From contig JBBCAX010000326.1 in NCBI GenBank assembly GCA_051382335.1, positions 1-18,395 on the forward strand: a stretch of 18,395 bases of DNA, written 5' to 3'. Shown here in pieces: positions 1,232-17,506 of this stretch. A program made the translations under genes and the position numbers. The notes under the pieces are model-generated. The model did no database searches. It saw only the letters and a list, made by a program, of their open reading frames with translations, and was not told the DNA's origin. This DNA is from Deltaproteobacteria bacterium TL4 (GTDB lineage: Bacteria; SAR324; NAC60-12). Numbering within the stretch: the first letter of the stretch is position 1; every line of letters starts with the position of its first letter.

Positions 1232-2779
1232 ATGTGGAAAAGAATCATCAGCAGTCTCATCGGCATTGGGCTGGCCTTCAGCCCCTCCGTCTGGGCGGAA
1301 ACACAAACCGTGGTTGAGGAAGGCATCGCCTATATCGGCAACGGCATCACGGTAGAAGACGCGCAGAAAGTGGCCGTCAACAAAGCCCTCAACAAAGCCC
1401 TCAACGGCATGGGTGCGTTTATTGAGTCTTCGCAGAAATCATCAGGCGGACGGCTGACCGCCAAGGAAGTATCGTCGATCACCGGCGCCGTAATGCAAAG
1501 CAAAATTCTGGAAACCAAGAATGAGGTGGAAGGCGCAACGTTCCTGATCAGAGTCAAGGTGCAGTTTCAGATCGACATGGAGAGTTTCAACCGCGCCCTG
1601 GCCAAATATCAGGAGGAAAGCAAGGACAAACAGGTGATTGCCCAGTTGATGGGATCGATGCAGAAACTTCAGGAACAACTGCTCAAGACGCAGAAAGGCA
1701 GTTTTGCGACCATCGAAATCGCCGATGAAATCGCCTTCAACACCAAAAAACTCGGCGACCTGCTGACCACTAAAGAAGTGATTAACAACGAACTGGAAAT
1801 CCAGAACATGTACATCCAGAAAATCAGAGCCATCATGCTCAACGACCTGATGCCGCTCATGACGCCCTTCCTGCGAGAGATCATGGTCTGGGATAAGGTG
1901 CCGCAGGAAAACAGAGGCCAGACCTTGTTCCTGCCGTTTGTCGGCGCGCCGAAAGAAAATCCCAATTATGGAGGCAAAGATAGCGATGGCAGGGTGCAGT
2001 GCATGAACCAGGAATACACCAACAACTATTTCAAACCGGCACTGGCCAAGCTATACCAGACCGCCAAAGATTATGACGCGCTCCAGCTCAAGACCCGTCC
2101 AGAACTGGAATTTGAGAGCGCTTTCGCCACACCGTTCATCCTGTATGTAAATCAGGATGAATATCCCGTTTACCTGAAAACCCGTGTGAGCGGCAACGCA
2201 TCAGGATTGAGCATGACCGTGAATCGTGAAGGCCGCATCGTGGACCTGAATTTCAGGCTTGAAGGCAACAGTTTAAGGAGTGAGCTGAGCTGCGGTCAAT
2301 ATAACCTGGACGAAAAATATCGCCTGACCGACATCCAGCAGTTTGACTGGCGGGTGAAACCCAGCAATCCCAGCACTTTTGAGTTGGGCCTGTTTCAAAA
2401 GATGGTTTATGCCGCAGACTCCAAGATCAATGGCGATGGCACGGTGACTCATCGTGGTTTGATGTGGCAGCAAGCAGGTGATAAAGAGTATGCGTGGGAA
2501 AAAGCCATCAACTATTGTAAGGCCTTGAGACTGGCTGGGTATCAGGATTGGAGACTGCCTGCCATTGAGGAACTCCAAATGTTGATTGAAAATAATCACG
2601 GTGCTCCATTCATCAATACCACCCTGTTTCCAAACACGCAGTCCTCGAGTTATTGGTCGTCCACGACGTATGCCTATTACACGTCCTTCGCTTGGAGCGT
2701 GAACTTCTACTTCGGCTACGTCAGCTACTACAATAAGACGTATAGCTTCTATGTTCGGTGTGTTCGAGGCGGACAATAG
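1232..2779 (+). CDS. Secreted protein: LPP20/FlgT-N-like N-terminus, coiled coil, C-terminal DUF1566 (C-type-lectin-fold) domain; probable DGR target
   Basis: RBS AGGAGA before ATG1232; signal peptide ending SVWA; DUF1566 motifs GDGTVT-GLMWQQ, WEKAINYC, GYQDWRLPAIEEL, YWSSTT, AWSVNF, YVRCVRGG. Confidence 0.88.
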   Translation: MWKRIISSLIGIGLAFSPSVWAETQTVVEEGIAYIGNGITVEDAQKVAVNKALNKALNGMGAFIESSQKSSGGRLTAKEVSSITGAVMQSKILETKNEVEGATFLIRVKVQFQIDMESFNRALAKYQEESKDKQVIAQLMGSMQKLQEQLLKTQKGSFATIEIADEIAFNTKKLGDLLTTKEVINNELEIQNMYIQKIRAIMLNDLMPLMTPFLREIMVWDKVPQENRGQTLFLPFVGAPKENPNYGGKDSDGRVQCMNQEYTNNYFKPALAKLYQTAKDYDALQLKTRPELEFESAFATPFILYVNQDEYPVYLKTRVSGNASGLSMTVNREGRIVDLNFRLEGNSLRSELSCGQYNLDEKYRLTDIQQFDWRVKPSNPSTFELGLFQKMVYAADSKINGDGTVTHRGLMWQQAGDKEYAWEKAINYCKALRLAGYQDWRLPAIEELQMLIENNHGAPFINTTLFPNTQSSSYWSSTTYAYYTSFAWSVNFYFGYVSYYNKTYSFYVRCVRGGQ

Positions 2780-2802
2780 GTGATTTGGTGATTTGGTTAT
2801 TT
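2642..2802 (+). other. Putative DGR variable region (VR) plus downstream GGT(G/T)ATTT x3 repeat
   Basis: 41 consecutive codons (2642-2764) with no third-position A; Y/F/S/N residues encoded by NNC/NNT codons derivable from AAC/AAT; octamer repeated at 2779-2802. Confidence 0.7.
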
Positions 2803-4387: not shown

Positions 4388-4587
4388 GCATATTTTCGTA
4401 TTATGTCTCCTGATTTGCATATTTTTGCATTGACAATGAAACCCGTATTGAGCAGTCCGTCACTGTTTTTGCTGTCGTTGGTGAAGAGGCCTTGGATTGG
4501 GCGACAGCGACTAGTTATTTCCTCAATCCGAGTTCAATTCATTCACCCTCAAATGGGGATTTTATCTCGTTCCTAAAGGAGCATCCT

Positions 4588-6612
4588 ATGATACGTAATT
4601 TCTTTCTATTCATGACCAGTCTGTTGTTGAGTGTGTCCCTTCTGTCCTGTGGTGATCAGCCTCTGGAAACGAACGAACCTCAAAGTACCTCTGCTATAAT
4701 CACGGTGGCGTTTCCCTCCACGGAACCAGCATCCGCACGCTTTCTCAGTACAGCTAAAGCCAAAGGCGTGGTGGGGGATGTGACCAAAATCACCATCACT
4801 GTCAAAAATGACACCACCGCTGTGGTGACTGACCAACCACTCACCCAGACCGCTTCGGATTGGAATGTCACACTGACCAATTTGCCCATAGGAGTCGCAC
4901 TGACGTTTGAAGCCCATGCCGTCAACGTAACCAATGTGGAGATTTTCAATGGCTCCACTCAGCAAACCCTGGCCGAGACCAACAACACCGTCACTTTGAC
5001 CCTGGCTCCAGTGGATGATGCGGCAGCGCCAACCTTGCCAAAAATCACTCAGATCGCCAATCCTGCCAAAGTCATTGTTTCCAAAACAGCAACAGTTTCA
5101 GTCCAGATTGGGGGAACTGCAGGTGAAAAACTCACGTATCAGGTGACTGCTGCCACCAATGGAGGCTCTTTCACTCCCGCATCTGGTGACATCACACTGA
5201 CAGGGACTACCGCAACGATTGCTCTCACGTACACCGCTCCTGCGACTCTGGCCAAATACAAACACACTTTCACCTTGACCAATGCCCAGGGCAACACCGT
5301 TTCCTCCGAGTTTGAAATGGAAGTCGTCCAACAGGTGACAACCAGTGTGGTCAAAGTTCAGTTCAATCCGGTCATTACCTCCCTGAAAGTCGTCCGCTCC
5401 GGAACCACAATTATCTGGACCGCGACCGTGAATGATGATGGTGCCGCCAGCACCTTGCGTTACCTATGGACTTTTGCTGGAAAAACCTTTGTCGATGCCA
5501 CCACCAATCCCGCCACAATGAATGACTACACCGAATCCACTACCGGCAACCTGGTGTTGAAAGTCACAGATGGCAATGGCACCGGAGGCTCCACCACCTT
5601 GACCTACGCTCTTCCCGCAAGTCAGTTTCCTGACAACGTGGCCCTCAATCTGCAAGGTTCCACCGCTGGAATGATCACCGTACCGATGGAAGTGGCGTCT
5701 TGGACAAAATTTACTTGGTCAAATGCTACTTCTACGTTGGAAAAAACAACGGAAGGTATCAAACTATCCTGCAGTGAGTACAGACAGGGTCTGCAGTTTG
5801 CTCCCAAAGTGGCTTATGATCTAAGTAATGCTGAAGTTTTTATGAAATGGAAAGCCAATGCAAGCGGGAATTACTCTTTCTTCTATCCTGCGATCTATCA
5901 CGTTGCTAATGACTTCACCATGACAGGTATTGGATCATTTGGGGGGGGATCAACCCATCACGGTTACGGTGAAAACGTCCTCATTGCTGAAAATACGTTT
6001 TACTACACACGGATGAAAATCAACTCAGACAAGACGTATAATGTTTTCACGTCCACTGGTAACTATGACTCAAACGGAGGAACCGTCGTTATTTCTAAAT
6101 CAGGTACTATTCCCGACACAGAGTGGGCAGGAATCAACAGTGCTACTTTCGGTGCATTATTTGGCGATAACTATGCTCCTGCCTACATGATTGTGAGCGA
6201 AGTCATCATTAAAAAGCCTGCCTCTTGCCAGTCCTCCGGATTGTATGACAATTGTCTGACCTATGGCGGTCATACCTATGGAATCACCAAAACCGCCATG
6301 ACCTGGGATCTGGCCAAAACCCAGGCGGAAACGAATGGGGGACATTTGGCAGTTGTTGACACCAGTGCGGAAAACACCTTTCTTACGACGAGTTATGTGA
6401 CCAGTACGATCGGCCCCTGGATGGGCTACAATGACCTTGTGACCGAAGGTTCCTGGAAATGGGTCAATGGCAGTACCGCTACCTATACCAATTGGTCTCC
6501 AGGACAACCTGATAATTCGCAGAATGAAGATTGTGGTCATATGTTTAGTGATGGTCGCTGGAATGATAATCAATGTAGTGCTTCCATGAAAGCCATAGTG
6601 GAGTGGGAGTGA
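4588..6612 (+). CDS. Lipoprotein paralog A: three shared Ig-like stalk domains, a beta-rich domain and a C-terminal C-type lectin domain
   Basis: RBS AAAGGAG before ATG4588; lipobox LLSC; CTLD motifs TWDLAK-GGHLAVV, WMGYND-EGSWKWVNG, NWSPGQPD, EDC, WND. Confidence 0.9.
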   Translation: MIRNFFLFMTSLLLSVSLLSCGDQPLETNEPQSTSAIITVAFPSTEPASARFLSTAKAKGVVGDVTKITITVKNDTTAVVTDQPLTQTASDWNVTLTNLPIGVALTFEAHAVNVTNVEIFNGSTQQTLAETNNTVTLTLAPVDDAAAPTLPKITQIANPAKVIVSKTATVSVQIGGTAGEKLTYQVTAATNGGSFTPASGDITLTGTTATIALTYTAPATLAKYKHTFTLTNAQGNTVSSEFEMEVVQQVTTSVVKVQFNPVITSLKVVRSGTTIIWTATVNDDGAASTLRYLWTFAGKTFVDATTNPATMNDYTESTTGNLVLKVTDGNGTGGSTTLTYALPASQFPDNVALNLQGSTAGMITVPMEVASWTKFTWSNATSTLEKTTEGIKLSCSEYRQGLQFAPKVAYDLSNAEVFMKWKANASGNYSFFYPAIYHVANDFTMTGIGSFGGGSTHHGYGENVLIAENTFYYTRMKINSDKTYNVFTSTGNYDSNGGTVVISKSGTIPDTEWAGINSATFGALFGDNYAPAYMIVSEVIIKKPASCQSSGLYDNCLTYGGHTYGITKTAMTWDLAKTQAETNGGHLAVVDTSAENTFLTTSYVTSTIGPWMGYNDLVTEGSWKWVNGSTATYTNWSPGQPDNSQNEDCGHMFSDGRWNDNQCSASMKAIVEWE

Positions 6613-8685: not shown

Positions 8686-10389
8686 ATGCGTACTCTCTTT
8701 TTGTTGATGACCTGCCTGTTGCTGAGTTTATCCCTTGTTGCTTGTGGGGATTTTCAGGCAGGCAGCGAGGATCAGCCTCAAAGTAAGGAATTTCAAAGCA
8801 CTTCGGCGCGGATCAGCATCGGGTTTTCTGATGAAGAAGCTTCGATGGCACGTTTTGTCAGTACCGCCAAATTCAAAGGTGTGACAGGCGATATTTCCAA
8901 AATCACGTTGACGGTCAAAAATGGCACCACGGCGTTGGTCTCCGACAAAGCGCTCACCCAGACTGCTTCAGAATGGAGCGCCACCTTGAGTTCCTTACCG
9001 GTAGGCGTTGCTCTGACCTTTGAAGGACATGCCACCAATGCAGGCAATGTCGAAATTTTTAATGGTTCCACCCAGCAAACCCTGGTCGAATCTGACAACA
9101 ACGTAACTCTGACGCTGGTGCCTGTGGATGACGCAATAACTCCGGCCTTGCCAAAAATCATTCAAATTGCCAATCCTGCCAAGGTTCAAATTTCCAAAAC
9201 GGAAACGATTGCGATCCAGATTGGAGGAACTTCAGGTGAAAAACTGACGTATCAGATCGCGGCTGCTACAAGTGGAGGCTCCTTTACGCCTGCCTCAGGA
9301 GAGATCACACTAACGGGTACCACTGCGACGATCAGTTTTTCTTACACGGCTCCTGCGACTCTTGCCAAATACAAACACACCTTCACGCTCACCAATGCCC
9401 AGAACAACACGGTTTTCCAGGATTTTGAAATGGAGGTGATTCCAGAAATCCCTTCAACGCCACCCGCATTTGCTGCGGTCGCACAAGCAGTAACAACCAC
9501 GAAAAACATGGCAAAGGCAATAACTCTGTCAGCGATCAACACGAGCGTGACCAGCCTCACCTACAACATCACCACGCAACCTCTGTACGGGATAGTGACT
9601 GTCAGTGGCGCGACCGCAACCTACACTCCCACCACTAATTATGTGGGAACCGATTCGTTTGCTTTCAAGGTGAATGATGAAATCAGTGATTCTTCTCCCG
9701 CGACGGTTTCCATTACAGTCAACCGTCCTCCCAATCAGACTCCTGTAGCCAATGCGGGTAGCGCCCAAACCGTGGTGAAGGGAAATACGGTCACCCTAAA
9801 TGGTTCGGCCAGCAGTGATCCGGATGGAGATGCCCTGACTTATAGCTGGTCACTGACCACCAAACCATCAGGCAGCACAGCCACTCTGAGCAACGCCACA
9901 ACAACAACCCCCACCTTTGTGCCTAATGAGGAAGGCAGTTATGTGGCAACCCTTACGGTGAATGATGGCTTTGCTACGTCAACTCCTGCCACAGTCACGA
10001 TCACGGTGACAGATGGCAGACCTGCCAGTTTGTCAGAAATCGTGGGAACCTGGAACTGTCCTTCTTGTATTGGAGGGAGTTTGACGGTGGGTAGTAGTGG
10101 AGTCATTCCCTCAGTGCGTGTGGTGGTCGGTTCTCACGCTGGAGGAACGGGTTGTGTAGCCAGTGATAATGCCGAGTTTAGCGCCATTCAAGTCAATACA
10201 AGCCTGTTTACCTTTACTTCCAGATACGAGGCCAATTACTACTCTGTGAGTACACAAGTAATAGCCAATCTGACTGGAAAATTCATCAATAACAAATTGC
10301 AAATGAGTGTAACGTACAGTTTTACCAGGTTTGATTATAATTATACGCTCTGCAATCCAACTCTTACCATGGTAGATTCTACCCATTGA
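8686..10389 (+). CDS. Lipoprotein paralog B: two shared stalk domains, a cadherin/Big_9-like Ig domain, a PKD-like Ig domain and an unknown Cys-containing tip
   Basis: Lipobox LVAC; YTPTTNYVGTDSFAFKVND; PVANAG...LNGSASSDPDGDALTYSW...LTVNDG. Confidence 0.9.
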   Translation: MRTLFLLMTCLLLSLSLVACGDFQAGSEDQPQSKEFQSTSARISIGFSDEEASMARFVSTAKFKGVTGDISKITLTVKNGTTALVSDKALTQTASEWSATLSSLPVGVALTFEGHATNAGNVEIFNGSTQQTLVESDNNVTLTLVPVDDAITPALPKIIQIANPAKVQISKTETIAIQIGGTSGEKLTYQIAAATSGGSFTPASGEITLTGTTATISFSYTAPATLAKYKHTFTLTNAQNNTVFQDFEMEVIPEIPSTPPAFAAVAQAVTTTKNMAKAITLSAINTSVTSLTYNITTQPLYGIVTVSGATATYTPTTNYVGTDSFAFKVNDEISDSSPATVSITVNRPPNQTPVANAGSAQTVVKGNTVTLNGSASSDPDGDALTYSWSLTTKPSGSTATLSNATTTTPTFVPNEEGSYVATLTVNDGFATSTPATVTITVTDGRPASLSEIVGTWNCPSCIGGSLTVGSSGVIPSVRVVVGSHAGGTGCVASDNAEFSAIQVNTSLFTFTSRYEANYYSVSTQVIANLTGKFINNKLQMSVTYSFTRFDYNYTLCNPTLTMVDSTH

Positions 10390-10831: not shown

Positions 10832-13090
10832 ATGCTACGTACTTGCTTTCTGTTCATAACCAGTCTGTTGTTGAGTTTATCGCTCCTATCTTGTAGTGAT
10901 TTTGTGTCTGATAACAAGGATAGCCGTCAAGCCACGGAATCTCAAAGCGCTTCAGCACAGATCACCATCGGGTTTCCTGATGAAGATTCTACTCTGACTC
11001 GTTTTATCAGCACCGCCAAATTCAAGGGAGTGGTAGGAGATGTGACACAAATTACCCTGACCGTCAAAAATGGCACAACCGCTGTGGTGACTGATAAAGC
11101 GCTCACTCAAACCGCTTCCGAGTGGACCTTGACCTTGACTGATTTGCCAGTGGGAGTGGCATTGACCTTTGAAGGCCACGCTTACAACGCGACCAATGTC
11201 GAAATCTTCAATGGTTCCACCCAGCAAACCCTGGTTGAAGCCGATAACACGGTCGCTTTGACGTTGGCGCCAGTGGATGACGCAGTCACGCCGACCTTGC
11301 CCAAAATCAGTCAGGTCGCCAATCCCGCCAAAGTCAGTGCATCCAAAACAGCAACAGTTTCCCTCCTGATTGGAGGAACCTCCGGGGAAAAAATGACGTA
11401 TCAAATCACTGCCGCCACCAATGGAGGCTCGTTTAATCCAGCGTCAGGAAACATTACACTGACAGGCACAACTGCAACGATTGCCCTCACCTACACGGCG
11501 CCTGCGACGCTGGCTAAATACAAACACACCTTTGCGATCACGAATTCCCAAGGCAACATCGTGTCCATTGATTTTGAGATGGAAGTCGTTCAGCAAACCA
11601 CGACCAGCACCGTGAAAGTTCAGTTTAATCCAGTTGTGACCGCACTGAAAACCACTCGTTCCGGCACCGACATTATCTGGACTGCTACCGTCAACGATGA
11701 CACTGCCGCCAGCACCTTGCGTTACTTATGGACGTTCGCAGGAAAAACCTTTGTGGATGCCACCACCAATCCTGCCACCTTACAAAACTACACCGAAGCC
11801 ACCACCGGAAACCTCGTTCTCAAAGTCACTGATGTCAACGGCACCGGAGGCTCCACTACCGTCACCTATCCTCTTGCCGAAGGGCAATTTCCTGATAACG
11901 CAATCCTGAATATCACGGGTTCCACCACCGGACTGGTGGCTTATTATCCTTTCAACGGCAACGCCAATGATGAAAGCGGAAATGGAAACAATGGAACTGT
12001 CAACGGAGCCACTTTAGCCACGGATCGGCATGGGGTGGCAAATAAGGCGTATAGTTTTAATGGAAGCAGTAATTATATTGCTCTCCCCAGTGGATTCAAA
12101 GATTTCACAGGAGGTATTACAGTTTCTGTTTGGGCATATCCGGCTGCTCTGAATTATTGGTCAAGATTTATCGATTTTGGAAACGGTGCTAGCAGCGATA
12201 ACATTTTGCTGGCTAATGAAGGTAGTAGTTCCACTCTGACTTTTGTATCTTTTTCTGCTTCCAGTGAGTTAACACGCACCTCTGTCAGTAGCAGTATTGG
12301 TTTGAATCAATGGCAACATTTTGTGGCAGTCAATGATACCCTTGGGAATGTGTATTTATTCAAAAATGGGGTTAAAATTGCGACAGGTACCTCTACCGGG
12401 TTACCTAAAAATGTGACTCGGAACAATAACTACATTGGTAAAAGTAATTGGTCTGTTGATGGATATTATAGTGGTAAAATCGACGACCTCCGCATTTACA
12501 ACCGTGCTTTGTCTGCGGCAGAGGTGAGCGCTTTGTATGAGACTGAGAAGCCTGTTACAACGTCAACTGCTAGCACGGTTCTGCAACCAGGACCAGAAGA
12601 GGGAAGGGATACTTTTGTGAGAAGTTCTTTACCTACACCTTCAGCAGAATGGGAAACCTACCGCTTGGTATGTGAATCCGTCCTGCCAACAGGAGGATGG
12701 GGAGATCAATATTATTCATTGCTAAAATTTAACTTAACTAGCTTGCCTGAACATGCGACTTCAGCAAAAATTTATTTATATTCTATCCAGACAGGAGGAA
12801 ATGGTGTTACCCCTCTATATTTAGATCAAGTCACATCTTCCTGGAATGATACAACAACCTGGTCAACTAAACCTACATCAATCAACCTATCAGAACTTTC
12901 TGCACCAATTCCCAATGAATGGTATGAATTAGATATTACAGAACTCTATAATAAATGGAAGTCTGGTGGGGCTACAAATCATGGAATACAATTGCGTCCT
13001 AAAAATACATGGAACTACTGGAATAACTTTTACAGCTCAAATTATATGGATGACCCATCATTAAGACCTAAATTAGTTATTACTCCGTAA
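10832..13090 (+). CDS. Lipoprotein paralog C: three shared stalk domains, a LamG/concanavalin domain and a DNRLRE/CBM96-like domain
   Basis: RBS AAGGAG; lipobox LLSC; LVAYYPFNGNANDESGNGNNG...IDDLRIYNRALS; LQPGPEEGRDT...LLKFNL...WYELDITELY...NHGI...RPKLVIT. Confidence 0.9.
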   Translation: MLRTCFLFITSLLLSLSLLSCSDFVSDNKDSRQATESQSASAQITIGFPDEDSTLTRFISTAKFKGVVGDVTQITLTVKNGTTAVVTDKALTQTASEWTLTLTDLPVGVALTFEGHAYNATNVEIFNGSTQQTLVEADNTVALTLAPVDDAVTPTLPKISQVANPAKVSASKTATVSLLIGGTSGEKMTYQITAATNGGSFNPASGNITLTGTTATIALTYTAPATLAKYKHTFAITNSQGNIVSIDFEMEVVQQTTTSTVKVQFNPVVTALKTTRSGTDIIWTATVNDDTAASTLRYLWTFAGKTFVDATTNPATLQNYTEATTGNLVLKVTDVNGTGGSTTVTYPLAEGQFPDNAILNITGSTTGLVAYYPFNGNANDESGNGNNGTVNGATLATDRHGVANKAYSFNGSSNYIALPSGFKDFTGGITVSVWAYPAALNYWSRFIDFGNGASSDNILLANEGSSSTLTFVSFSASSELTRTSVSSSIGLNQWQHFVAVNDTLGNVYLFKNGVKIATGTSTGLPKNVTRNNNYIGKSNWSVDGYYSGKIDDLRIYNRALSAAEVSALYETEKPVTTSTASTVLQPGPEEGRDTFVRSSLPTPSAEWETYRLVCESVLPTGGWGDQYYSLLKFNLTSLPEHATSAKIYLYSIQTGGNGVTPLYLDQVTSSWNDTTTWSTKPTSINLSELSAPIPNEWYELDITELYNKWKSGGATNHGIQLRPKNTWNYWNNFYSSNYMDDPSLRPKLVITP

Positions 13091-14173: not shown

Positions 14174-17100
14174 CTACATTGATTTTAGTTCTTCTGCGAG
14201 TTTTCTGATTAACTCAGGCATCGCGCTTTTCAACGCCTTATGTACGGAACTCGCAATCATGTTTTCGACTATTTGCTCTAAGCTACTGGAAGACGCTCGT
14301 TTAGAAGGACGTTCCAGATGAGGATCTGACGGGATCACCAGAGGTTCTTCAATTAAAGGAAAGTCTTCGTCTGAGACCTCTAACCTGACTTCAGAGGACT
14401 CGTCTTCCAAAGTCACTTCCAACTCTGATTCCGCGTCTATCGCAGCACTGCCAACCTCAGACGCTGGCTCTGAGTTCTCATCCAGTTCGTCATGGAAAGA
14501 GACGCTTTCAGCATCTTCAATCTCTTCGGAATCCTCAAGCGTTTCCAATTCTGCTTCCTCATCCAACTCATCATGAAAGGACATCACTTCCGTGTCTTCA
14601 TCTTCGAAATCAGAGTCTAACGGACTCTCAAGAGCATCAACCTCTTCGCTTAGCTCTGTGGAACTATCTCTAAACGAATTGTCACTCAGATTCTGTTCCA
14701 TTTCGTTTTCATCAATGTCTTCTTCAAACAGAGGTTCTTCAGAAAGATCGTATTGTGAACTTTCTATGGAGGCCATCTCTTGATCTAACTCGTCCAGTTC
14801 AGCAAGGGCTTCTTGCTCCATTTGTTGTAAAGCTTCAGCATCTTTTTCGAGATCTTGTTCAAAAATATCTTCCCTGGTTATAGGTTCTGGTGAGCTCTCA
14901 TCCTCAGCACTCAAAGAATCCGTACTGAAATCTTCAGAATCCATAGTCAATTCATCGTCGCTTTGAACAGACTCCTCCAATTCACTTTCATCGCCTAGTT
15001 CAAGAGCGTCGTCCTCTTCGTCAAAGAGAGATTCATCGCTGCCGAACTCCTCGGCCTCCTCCGATAAAGCTGATAGTTCTTCATCCTCTTCGGCAAATAA
15101 GGCAGCGTCATCGTCAAGAGCCTCAGTCTCCGTTTCCTCATCAAATAAAGAACGCTCTTCATCAAAAGAAGCCTCCCCAAGGACATCACTTGGAGACTCT
15201 TCTTCAAATAACGCACTTTCGTCATCAGCGTCTTCCAGACCCGGCTCTTCGTCACTTTCATCCTCCAAGAAGAGAGAGTCTTCATCAAGAGCGTCTTCAC
15301 GCATAGAATCAGAATCAGCAAAAACATCTTCTTCCCTAGAAGCGTCGGAGTTCATGGTTTCTTCAACACTCGAAAGTGTCCCAATCCTGGTAATCAAATC
15401 ATCATCAACAACAGCCTGATCACTGCTTTCCAAAATTGCGTCCGGATCATAGAACACAATTTGATCCTGATCCAAAACAACACGGTCCCAAGCATGAGGT
15501 AAGGTGACTTGTTTATCTTCAGTTGTCATATCCAAAAACAATTCGTCATCGGTTGAGACATAGCAGGTTATCTCACTTTCTTCCGAATCCTCTGATAAAT
15601 TGACACCCTCAGGACTATCAACAATAAAATCATTTTTAGTTAAGGAAATGTCCTCTAACCCACCGCGTAAAGTCTGTACCGAATCGGTGTCATAGGTATT
15701 CAAATCGACATCATCCACAAAATCATTCAGTTCCAGATCAATATCCACCAAGCCTTTTCTTAGGGTTTGAGCGCCCACTTTTTTGTAGTAGTCTTCCTGA
15801 TCCAACGAAGGAAGATCCTGATCATCTCCTAAAATAAGTTCGTCCTCATCTTCTTCCAGCGTAATCTCACCAACGGCAAAGTCTTCCATTTCCAGGTCGG
15901 AGGTATCGGAAGCATCTAAAAATGAGGCATCCACCTCTGAGGAATCTAACACAATTTCTTCATCGTCAAATTCAGAATCCTCTTCGAAGTCATCCAGCGT
16001 CACCTCGACACGATCCATCTGTTGTAGTTCTTCTCTGCTGGGAAGTGCCTGTTCAAAACGCGCGTCGATTTTCTGTAGGGGAATCTCAAATGACGAGGCC
16101 TCGGAAGGACTATCCTCCTCTGACAGGGAAAACAACACTTCCTCTTCCTGTTCAAAATCCATTTCGCCTTCATTGTCTTCTTCAACAACAGAGGCCCCCA
16201 TAGGATTTTCCTCCCAGATCATTGCTGTCCTGTCAGCGGAAGGCTGATCTTCAATGACCAACTGATCTTCTATTCCTGATTGTTTCAGTTGCCCCAAGCC
16301 ATCTTGAGGTTCAGAAAATGCTTTGGTTTGTGGCTCCTGTAACAGGGCTCCCCCCTCAGTTGCCTCCATATCGTCAGCGGATGAGAGAATCACTGAGTCT
16401 TGTGAGCTTGCGAATAAGGCCTCCGCCTCATCCTCGTCCAACTCCAAACCTTCTTCGTCGACATCACCATCATTGTCATCTTCATCAAACGCCTCACCCT
16501 CAAGCGTCTCTTCATCTTCATCTTCGCTGGAGATCATAACCACAGCGTCATCGTCGGGTTCGACCAAATCGCTCACATCGTTATAGGAAACATCCGTCTC
16601 AAGTTGTAGAATTTCGTCATCGGTCAAATCAAGTTCATCTTCGTTGTCTTCTTCGAGTAACGAAGCGTCTTCTTCATCTTCAGACAACTCCATATCCTCG
16701 TCTCTCAAGGTTAGCAAGGCATCATCACTTTCATCGACTTGCTGTGAAAGATCAAGCTCCAGCAGGTCCTCGAAATCATCTTCAAATTCGGTCTCATCGC
16801 CCTTACTTTCGGAAATATCGATAACCTCAAGTCGATCAGAATCAACCTCGTCCAGATTGTCTTCAATGCTGGAAGCGTCCAAAGCCTCTTCATCCATAGA
16901 GATTTCATCCTCCAAAGAAACGCCAACCATGAGTTCTTCGTCCTCCTCGACTGGCCCTTCAATTTCCTCAGAAAAATCTACTTCAGGAACGTCATCATCT
17001 GTAAAGTTAGAGGCCGGAGGTGTGTCTTTAAGCAGATCCAGCATTTCATCATCAAAAACTTTAATACTCTCTTCAATTAATTGAGGTGATTCGTCAAAAG

Positions 17101-17506
17101 ACTGAGCTTGCTGAAACGCTTCTGCGGCCGGCATTAAGAAGGCTGAGGGAATGAATTGTTTGACTTCTTCCTGAAGGGTTGCTGCCTCAAAAGGAATCTG
17201 AATCAACCCATTAATTTTTAATTGCTGAAGTTGTTTTGTATCAATCCGGTCTCTGGCTTTTGCCAACAAAAGCAGCGGCACATTGCAAAGATCCTGGTCT
17301 TTTCGAAGCTCTTTGCAAGTAACGTAATTGTTCCGGCCATCAGAATTGCTAATTAAGATCAAATCGGGTTTGAGTTGTTTAGCCCGAGCTAAAAACCTAC
17401 TAGAGTCCTGTTCTTGATAAATTTGCAGGGTGCTTATCTGTAGCGTTGATGTAACCAACCCCTGAATAGTTTGACTTTCTTCAAGTACAAGAACAGATTT
17501 CGACAT
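14174..17506 (-). CDS. Pseudo-receiver domain protein with a very long acidic linker and helical C-terminus (RomR-like architecture)
   Basis: Receiver-fold pattern VLVLEES...KPDLILIS...VPLLLL, with Ser at the expected phospho-Asp; ~900 aa D/E-rich region; C-terminus LEQIVENMIASSVHKALKSAMPELIRKLAEEL. Confidence 0.85.
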   Translation of the reverse strand: MSKSVLVLEESQTIQGLVTSTLQISTLQIYQEQDSSRFLARAKQLKPDLILISNSDGRNNYVTCKELRKDQDLCNVPLLLLAKARDRIDTKQLQQLKINGLIQIPFEAATLQEEVKQFIPSAFLMPAAEAFQQAQSFDESPQLIEESIKVFDDEMLDLLKDTPPASNFTDDDVPEVDFSEEIEGPVEEDEELMVGVSLEDEISMDEEALDASSIEDNLDEVDSDRLEVIDISESKGDETEFEDDFEDLLELDLSQQVDESDDALLTLRDEDMELSEDEEDASLLEEDNEDELDLTDDEILQLETDVSYNDVSDLVEPDDDAVVMISSEDEDEETLEGEAFDEDDNDGDVDEEGLELDEDEAEALFASSQDSVILSSADDMEATEGGALLQEPQTKAFSEPQDGLGQLKQSGIEDQLVIEDQPSADRTAMIWEENPMGASVVEEDNEGEMDFEQEEEVLFSLSEEDSPSEASSFEIPLQKIDARFEQALPSREELQQMDRVEVTLDDFEEDSEFDDEEIVLDSSEVDASFLDASDTSDLEMEDFAVGEITLEEDEDELILGDDQDLPSLDQEDYYKKVGAQTLRKGLVDIDLELNDFVDDVDLNTYDTDSVQTLRGGLEDISLTKNDFIVDSPEGVNLSEDSEESEITCYVSTDDELFLDMTTEDKQVTLPHAWDRVVLDQDQIVFYDPDAILESSDQAVVDDDLITRIGTLSSVEETMNSDASREEDVFADSDSMREDALDEDSLFLEDESDEEPGLEDADDESALFEEESPSDVLGEASFDEERSLFDEETETEALDDDAALFAEEDEELSALSEEAEEFGSDESLFDEEDDALELGDESELEESVQSDDELTMDSEDFSTDSLSAEDESSPEPITREDIFEQDLEKDAEALQQMEQEALAELDELDQEMASIESSQYDLSEEPLFEEDIDENEMEQNLSDNSFRDSSTELSEEVDALESPLDSDFEDEDTEVMSFHDELDEEAELETLEDSEEIEDAESVSFHDELDENSEPASEVGSAAIDAESELEVTLEDESSEVRLEVSDEDFPLIEEPLVIPSDPHLERPSKRASSSSLEQIVENMIASSVHKALKSAMPELIRKLAEELKSM

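Follow-up and report, generated by a model that had tools for sequence, protein, structure and literature searches.

The closest described systems are Legionella LdtA and the CLec2 DGR targets of category 'd' (DUF1566/DUF823/Fib_succ_major; Wu et al., 2018, PMC5758913). As presented in the part of that paper available to us, these targets carry a C-terminal variable repeat (VR) within a DUF1566 domain, have constant residues at the ends and an N-terminal extension, and are likely exported; their cassettes contain avd, a MutS-like gene and an RT with a MutS_I extension, and remote targets are reported there for non-phage DGRs. The gene described here is like these targets in all of these features, and cassettes of that make-up are resident in its genome (G000), a 6.59 Mb draft in 445 contigs for which the completeness figure counts marker genes only. 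The gene lies on contig C326, the whole 18,395-base stretch of DNA that we analysed and refer to as the window. Its tip, the last 130 or so bases of the gene, is a real VR and belongs to a known class, CLec2/DUF1566; it lies far from any RT, and the resident template does not serve it.

The target gene and its protein

The gene is an intact ORF of 515 amino acids at 1232-2779 on the forward strand, with an ATG start at 1232 behind AGGAGA at 1222-1227; a TTG at 1190 is an alternative start for the same ORF. Its assignment as a DGR target gene for a predicted secreted protein with a C-terminal Lcl_C (CLec2-type) domain is based on the ORF, the Pfam matches and two relatives of the same architecture, P0002 and P0003. 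By eye, 1232-1297 encodes a likely Sec signal peptide with a basic start, a hydrophobic core, a VWA end and no lipobox cysteine, and the protein is likely secreted by this route. A predicted Lpp20/Tip-alpha-fold (FlgT_N-like) domain follows at 1301-1618. The next part, 1619-2449, comprises a helical stretch and a middle region; it belongs to no known family and is common to the scaffold relatives that have no Lcl_C. The Lcl_C/DUF1566 domain itself (PF07603, E 3.8e-34, above cut-off) lies at 2450-2767, which bears out the DUF1566 C-terminus claimed in an earlier note on this DNA.

That note had also claimed an LPP20/FlgT-N-like scaffold, and both the Pfam search and a fold search agree with it. 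The match to FlgT_N (PF16548; E 2.1e-4, 22.2 bits) falls below the cut-off of 28.8, and a sub-cut-off match of this kind is present in all four relatives scanned (4/4); the Pfam LPP20 family is not listed for the window protein at E 1. A model built from an 8-sequence alignment (pLDDT 74) has as its top two VIA rows Tip-alpha (3gio; Z 9.7, rmsd 3.0, 103 residues aligned) and Lpp20 (5ok8; Z 8.9, rmsd 3.2, 93 aligned), and the top Foldseek rows belong to the same family (E 1e-3 to 6e-3). The first 105 or so mature residues are thus predicted to adopt an Lpp20/Tip-alpha-type fold. A model of the whole protein made without an alignment has a pLDDT of 34; the Lcl_C domain has no sequence match among solved structures, and a search of the ESM Atlas returned unnamed clusters only.

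Full-length relatives are few. Besides the window protein, the fusion of Lcl_C to this scaffold was seen only in P0002 and P0003, which their sources name SAR324 cluster bacterium; from these names alone, the host is likely a SAR324-group bacterium. P0004 and P0005 have no Lcl_C. Seventy of the 114 scaffold matches were scanned: the 20 closest all lack Lcl_C, the families listed for the other 50 (the top five for the TPR-rich ones) do not include it, and the distant ones often carry TPRs. Since scaffold relatives are mostly without Lcl_C, it is likely that the lectin tip was grafted recently on to a predicted secreted scaffold. An IS splits one of the relatives that lack Lcl_C (L051:5615-8118); it lies in an integrative element whose other genes, named by eye, include two that are tyrosine-recombinase-like and one that is primase-like.

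Within the Lcl_C domain the VR spans 2642-2749 and is followed at 2750-2774 by a likely IMH of 25 bases (YVRCVRGG), a block after the last variable site that is identical in the three genes sharing this tip; VR and likely IMH together span 2642-2774. None of the 41 codons at 2642-2764 ends in A, just as had been claimed, compared with 89 of 484 upstream in the ORF (p 2.8e-4, for a stretch picked after the fact), and of the 2432 ORFs of at least 300 amino acids in the genome, only eight are likewise free of A at third positions over the corresponding part of the C-terminus. Scaffold codons of the types TCG, ACG, GCC, GTG, GTC and GGC, with TAC, TTC, AGC, TAT and TCC between them, are also as the note described. 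The triple repeat that it saw behind the stop is readable in the sequence at 2779-2802 as three 8-base units, GGTGATTT GGTGATTT GGTTATTT. Homology with the corresponding module on contig C103 ends at 2803-2810, and the GC hairpin that comes next on C103 is absent from the window.

The ORF list, Pfam and an adenine-tolerant scan revealed neither a template nor an RT in the window, in keeping with the earlier note; Rfam gave no match within it, and its promoter and terminator counts are at shuffle level. The window holds several other genes. Upstream, at 323-1117, is a FlgO-like/FlgT_N-like gene whose signal-peptide-like start (ending STSVFA) is severed by an in-frame TAG at 392-394, with no clear ATG; it is likely a pseudogene or an assembly error. 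Short intergenic tandem repeats precede both this gene (255-320, TTCACCA units) and the target gene (1147-1217, AGAAACA units and an inverted copy). Downstream, three paralogous lipoprotein-like genes (4492-6612, 8686-10389 and 10832-13090) have a common long N-terminal stalk and differing tips (Lectin_C; Big_9/PKD; LamG and CBM96), with toxin-antitoxin-like small genes between them, and 14174-17506 on the reverse strand encodes a 1110-residue response-regulator-like protein that ends in a very long, acidic tail of low complexity.

Variable tips, templates and tails in the genome

The tip of the window gene is common to a tandem Lcl_C gene on contig C103 and a lipoprotein-like gene on contig C140, which are otherwise unrelated genes of the same genome; we call these three tips group B. 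The earlier note expected mismatches to homologs to fall on template adenines. Using as proxies the homologous templates of contig C135 and of another genome, G086, rather than the cognate one, we find that 28 of the 31 variable columns (among 132) lie on adenines of the C135 template (Fisher p 3e-14) and 25 of 31 on those of the independent G086 template (p 7e-10). All 28 adenine-matched columns are at codon positions 1-2, and only three of 44 third positions vary within the group. Base composition (A/C/G/T) at columns matched to AAY codons is 44/2/22/28 in group B and 113/9/50/52 in seven template-matched targets; the two spectra fit one another (chi-square p 0.58). Inside the VR, conserved residues use identical codons in 27/29, 23/24 and 23/24 cases among the group-B genes, as against 17/30, 8/27 and 10/30 upstream in the same domain; a homogenised tract therefore starts near 2642.

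The three tips also have 23 fixed differences from the C135 template in common. The adenine rule, as given in the available part of PMC5758913, the confinement of differences to adenines and a scaffold unlike that of C135 together indicate that a DGR with another template wrote the group-B tips. On the evidence of sequence, the window tip is the work of a DGR. Sixteen residues of its VR fall on codons that correspond to AAY in the C135 template, and 11 of these are Tyr or Phe, as would be expected of a binding face.

Scaffold differences among the three tips amount to 1-3 of 88 columns, and those in the template-matched group A to 0-4; with a scaffold as uniform as that of group A, the rewriting of group-B tips was recent and may still go on. 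The window and C140 tips differ at one scaffold column, and both sisters of the window gene have A there. The ORFs of these two genes are intact, and the C103 sister has been severed upstream by a group II intron remnant and carries two silent differences; over 358 bases of the module, the likeness of the window to C103 is 75%. A match to the tip is present in 3 of 40 other genomes, and each of these matches is VR-like. In tandem Lcl_C genes (C103:28245-28757, L017, in this genome; C62, L022:1257, in genome G009) the post-stop tail is translated as a linker, GQ(S/L)GIWSL(D/G)YLAN, and the sequence of these linkers suggests head-to-tail fusion of entire target ends.

Profile searches of the genome found PF07603 at 36 places and RVT_1 at 20, with RTs in DGR cassettes on three contigs (C135, C34 and C153). 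The C135 cassette has the order target, MutS-like gene, avd, template, RT, target. The C34 cassette follows a C135-like plan, with an RT 55% identical to that of C135, and a deletion from the start of avd into the RT interior has removed its template. C153:1116-6300 is a complete FGE-type DGR with HRDC, avd and its own template, which matches its own FGE-type target; the window gene was rejected as a remote target of this system, the C153 template being absent from the BLASTN and adenine-tolerant matches of the VR. Broken RT relatives or fragments occur on nine further contigs (C68, C133, C156, C58, C208, C60, C387, C414 and C123).

The C135 template is matched by the seven genes of group A, on five contigs, with 0-4 non-adenine differences. 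On C187, all 18 mismatches to this template are at adenines, which is true remote targeting in this genome. The window VR differs from the same template at 40 positions, 22 of them non-adenine and five of these in the IMH, so the window gene was rejected as a further remote member of group A. Further groups of Lcl_C tips (C358/C60; C34:50496) differ at 11-16 columns from the resident template, and the assembly holds no template for them; the tips on C358, C60, C405, C220 and C34:50496 have scaffolds of their own and no assembled template, and on C60 and C115 an in-frame TAG takes the place of the conserved Trp.

A matrix trained on the 8-base tails of the seven group-A genes scores the window at 22.9 bits, C140 at 32.9, C103 at 28.0 and the C135 template at -2.2. 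Nine of 4083 ORF ends score above 15, namely six training genes and the three group-B genes; of the sites above 17 genome-wide, 20/34 lie behind an Lcl_C end and 14/34 do not. By this sequence measure, the tail is a mark of terminal Lcl_C target genes across all template groups of this genome. It is not universal, for scores behind tips in other genomes run from -19 to 26. A GC hairpin with a T run occurs five times in the genome, each time behind an Lcl_C gene of group A, group B or the C34:50496 type. No GC stem of at least five pairs lies within 130 bases downstream of the window gene (fold z 0.31), and the cis target C135a is likewise without a perfect stem. In BPP-1 such a hairpin is required for efficient homing, according to the available part of PMC3240598, and the available part of PMC5758913 gives hairpins for only 34% of DGRs; given this figure and the state of C135a, the missing hairpin of the window gene says little. 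The hairpin behind C358, C60, C405 and C220 was considered as a DGR signal and rejected, being a dispersed repeat of 160 copies.

Fate of the group-B template

The earlier note proposed a search of the rest of the genome for a non-coding copy of the VR that differs only at adenines. The sole Lcl-type template in the draft assembly, that of C135, differs at 22 non-adenine sites. DGR RTs and a template of the right type do exist in the genome, as the note supposed, and that template is non-cognate. An adenine-tolerant scan of both strands of all 445 contigs at full length found no group-B template, its only matches being C103, with 8 non-adenine mismatches, C140, with 18, and, further off at 22 apiece, C34:50496 and the C135 template. 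Pieces of 36 bases, with up to two non-adenine mismatches allowed, match the window and C103 only across the assembly. Within the assembly, genes for avd, the MutS-like protein and the RT of this clade are confined to C135 and C34, neither of which is linked to group B, plus a remnant of 30 residues on C123. The assembly keeps contigs down to 1008 bases, and 115 of its 445 contigs are shorter than 2 kb. The template that the note had predicted fits most codons, in a comparison by eye with the two sister tips only, and is probably wrong at three: every group-B gene has TCC for Ser at 2684, both sisters use an A-ending Ala codon at 2690, and the middle base of the codon at 2744 is G throughout the group.

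Public sequence was scanned in collections that may leave out the records nearest to this genome. A 23-base pattern for the B-type 3' end had no match in GTDB or viral contigs, and the B-type 3' end pattern gave none in metagenomes or plasmids; a looser pattern found five loci, none with a B scaffold (the best has 30 non-adenine mismatches), and 26 viral RT loci held no VR-like stretch. At E 1e-40, an RT of this clade is present in three genomes out of 87 others; G086 has a full cassette, and its template differs from the window VR at 26 non-adenine positions. The RT start codon lies inside the template IMH* (C135:19511; C42 of G086, L058), likewise in many of 120 RT relatives, and the RT N-terminus hence reports the 3' end of the template. 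Read in the +1 frame, the window IMH gives MFGVFEAD, and three of the 120 related RTs begin MFGVFAAESD; judged from these protein starts, templates with a B-like 3' end should exist elsewhere. In genome G009 (95% complete), where no RT matches at E 1e-15, a C103-like tandem gene carries a B-like scaffold that is off at 8-11 of 88 columns.

We consider it probable, if only just, that the window tip is the recently stranded target of a second Lcl-type DGR template that has been lost. A portable end module of Lcl_C domain, VR, IMH and 8-base tail would have been fused to the predicted secreted Lpp20-fold scaffold, and a distant cassette of the C135 kind, with MutS-like gene, avd, template and RT, would have copied template RNA into the window gene and two others. 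Template adenines would have been randomised at codon positions 1-2 and all other positions overwritten with one common scaffold, and some 16 likely surface residues of a lectin-fold binding face may thereby have been rebuilt. Secretion, ligand binding and the loss of the template, rather than its non-assembly, are parts of this account that we infer. In favour of loss, no part of a group-B cassette is assembled although 1-kb contigs are kept; DGRs have decayed in this genome, as seen in the C34 deletion and the RT fragments on nine other contigs; the C103 sister is severed and has two silent differences; the window gene is without the GC hairpin seen behind C103; the further tip groups (C358/C60; C34:50496) are likewise without a template; and in G009 a B-like tip stands without any RT match. 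A precedent for a stranded tip is given by the leftover targets of a DGR in Treponema denticola, described in the available part of PMC4891356. Counting against loss are the uniformity of the group-B scaffold, which is about that of group A, the draft state of the assembly and the intact ORFs of the window and C140 genes.

These last points favour a reading that we hold less probable but take seriously, namely that the cognate cassette is present in the organism, unassembled or unbinned, and still diversifies the window gene and its two sisters in trans. It would explain a near-identical scaffold in three unrelated genes and the intactness of two of them; remote targeting is real in this genome, as the gene on C187 demonstrates, three of 120 related RTs have a start that points to a B-like IMH*, and metagenome DGR contigs are short and remote targets missed, as reported in the available part of PMC8144416. 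However, none of the four cassette parts (0/4) appears in an assembly that keeps 1-kb contigs, and the B-type 3' motif is unmatched in metagenome and viral contigs and the B scaffold in GTDB, in scans from which the nearest records may be missing. The claim that the protein is diversified in trans thus stands in so far as a DGR wrote the tip from a distant template; as a statement about present activity it finds no matching template in the assembly.

The missing template could instead be the one deleted from the broken C34 cassette, since the deletion joining the start of avd to the RT interior took out a template which, given the divergence of the C34 and C135 RTs, probably differed from that of C135. 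We regard this origin as improbable: the genes flanking the C34 cassette and the nearby C34:50496 end in a different IMH and tail, and the scaffold of C34:50496, 13-15 of 88 columns off group B, makes it the better candidate relic of the C34 template. That the resident C135 DGR diversifies the window gene now is very improbable and contradicted by the sequence, with 22 non-adenine mismatches, five of them in the IMH; homing would also swap the B scaffold for that of group A, and a converted tract is seen in none of the three group-B genes. These objections outweigh the common clade, AAY layout and tail, the runs of exact identity with the C135 template (14, 10, 10 and 6 bases) and the finding for BPP-1, in the available part of PMC3240598, that 8 bases can suffice for 5' integration. 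Most doubtful of all is an origin without any retroelement, by recent gene conversion among lectin genes and diversifying selection. The 36 Lcl_C matches would provide the substrate, and the module shared by the window and C103 is 75% alike over 358 bases, but neither conversion nor selection would restrict changes to template adenines or produce the spectrum of a DGR, in which C is almost absent.

Beyond the loss of one template, at least four Lcl-type templates may have turned over serially on one pool of target ends, with the tail as a template-independent recognition or recruitment signal replacing the hairpin and an unassembled group-B cassette still active; we think this combination unlikely. 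If the tail were such a signal, any incoming cassette of this clade could capture genes that end in the module.

Comparison with known systems

Set against the category 'd' DGRs in the available part of PMC5758913, the window gene differs in having no cognate template in its assembly and no GC hairpin, and its protein, unlike LdtA, has no lipobox. The Lpp20/FlgT_N-like extension is not among the appended domains named in the available part of that paper, whose Table S1 may list a similar scaffold. For CLec2 DGRs without a hairpin, the conserved repeat behind the stop is a concrete candidate cis signal. The predicted beta-alpha-beta-beta fold of the N-terminus is common to Helicobacter pylori Lpp20 (5ok8), Tip-alpha (3gio) and HP1454 (4kzs), at 11-15% identity; in the window protein it leads into a helical region and then a tip of lectin fold, and the fold alone shows no function. 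A literature search for DGRs together with SAR324 found no paper.

The nearest parallel for the fate of the gene is the remote gene of T. denticola SP32 (PMC4891356, in the part available to us). There, as here, the resident template type is not the one that the VR fits; it differs from the foreign template mostly at adenines, the resident template is about 80% identical, and the pattern was read as gain and loss of cassettes. The T. denticola targets are of the FGE-sulfatase/CLec1 type and the foreign template is known from sister isolates, whereas the present targets are CLec2 and their template was not found in the assembly. Unlike T. denticola, this single genome would hold three stranded genes and at least two further template groups. 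The window gene may thus add one more stranded DUF1566 target, on an Lpp20/FlgT_N-like scaffold, and with its two sisters it forms a record of a further DGR template that worked recently in this likely SAR324-group genome.
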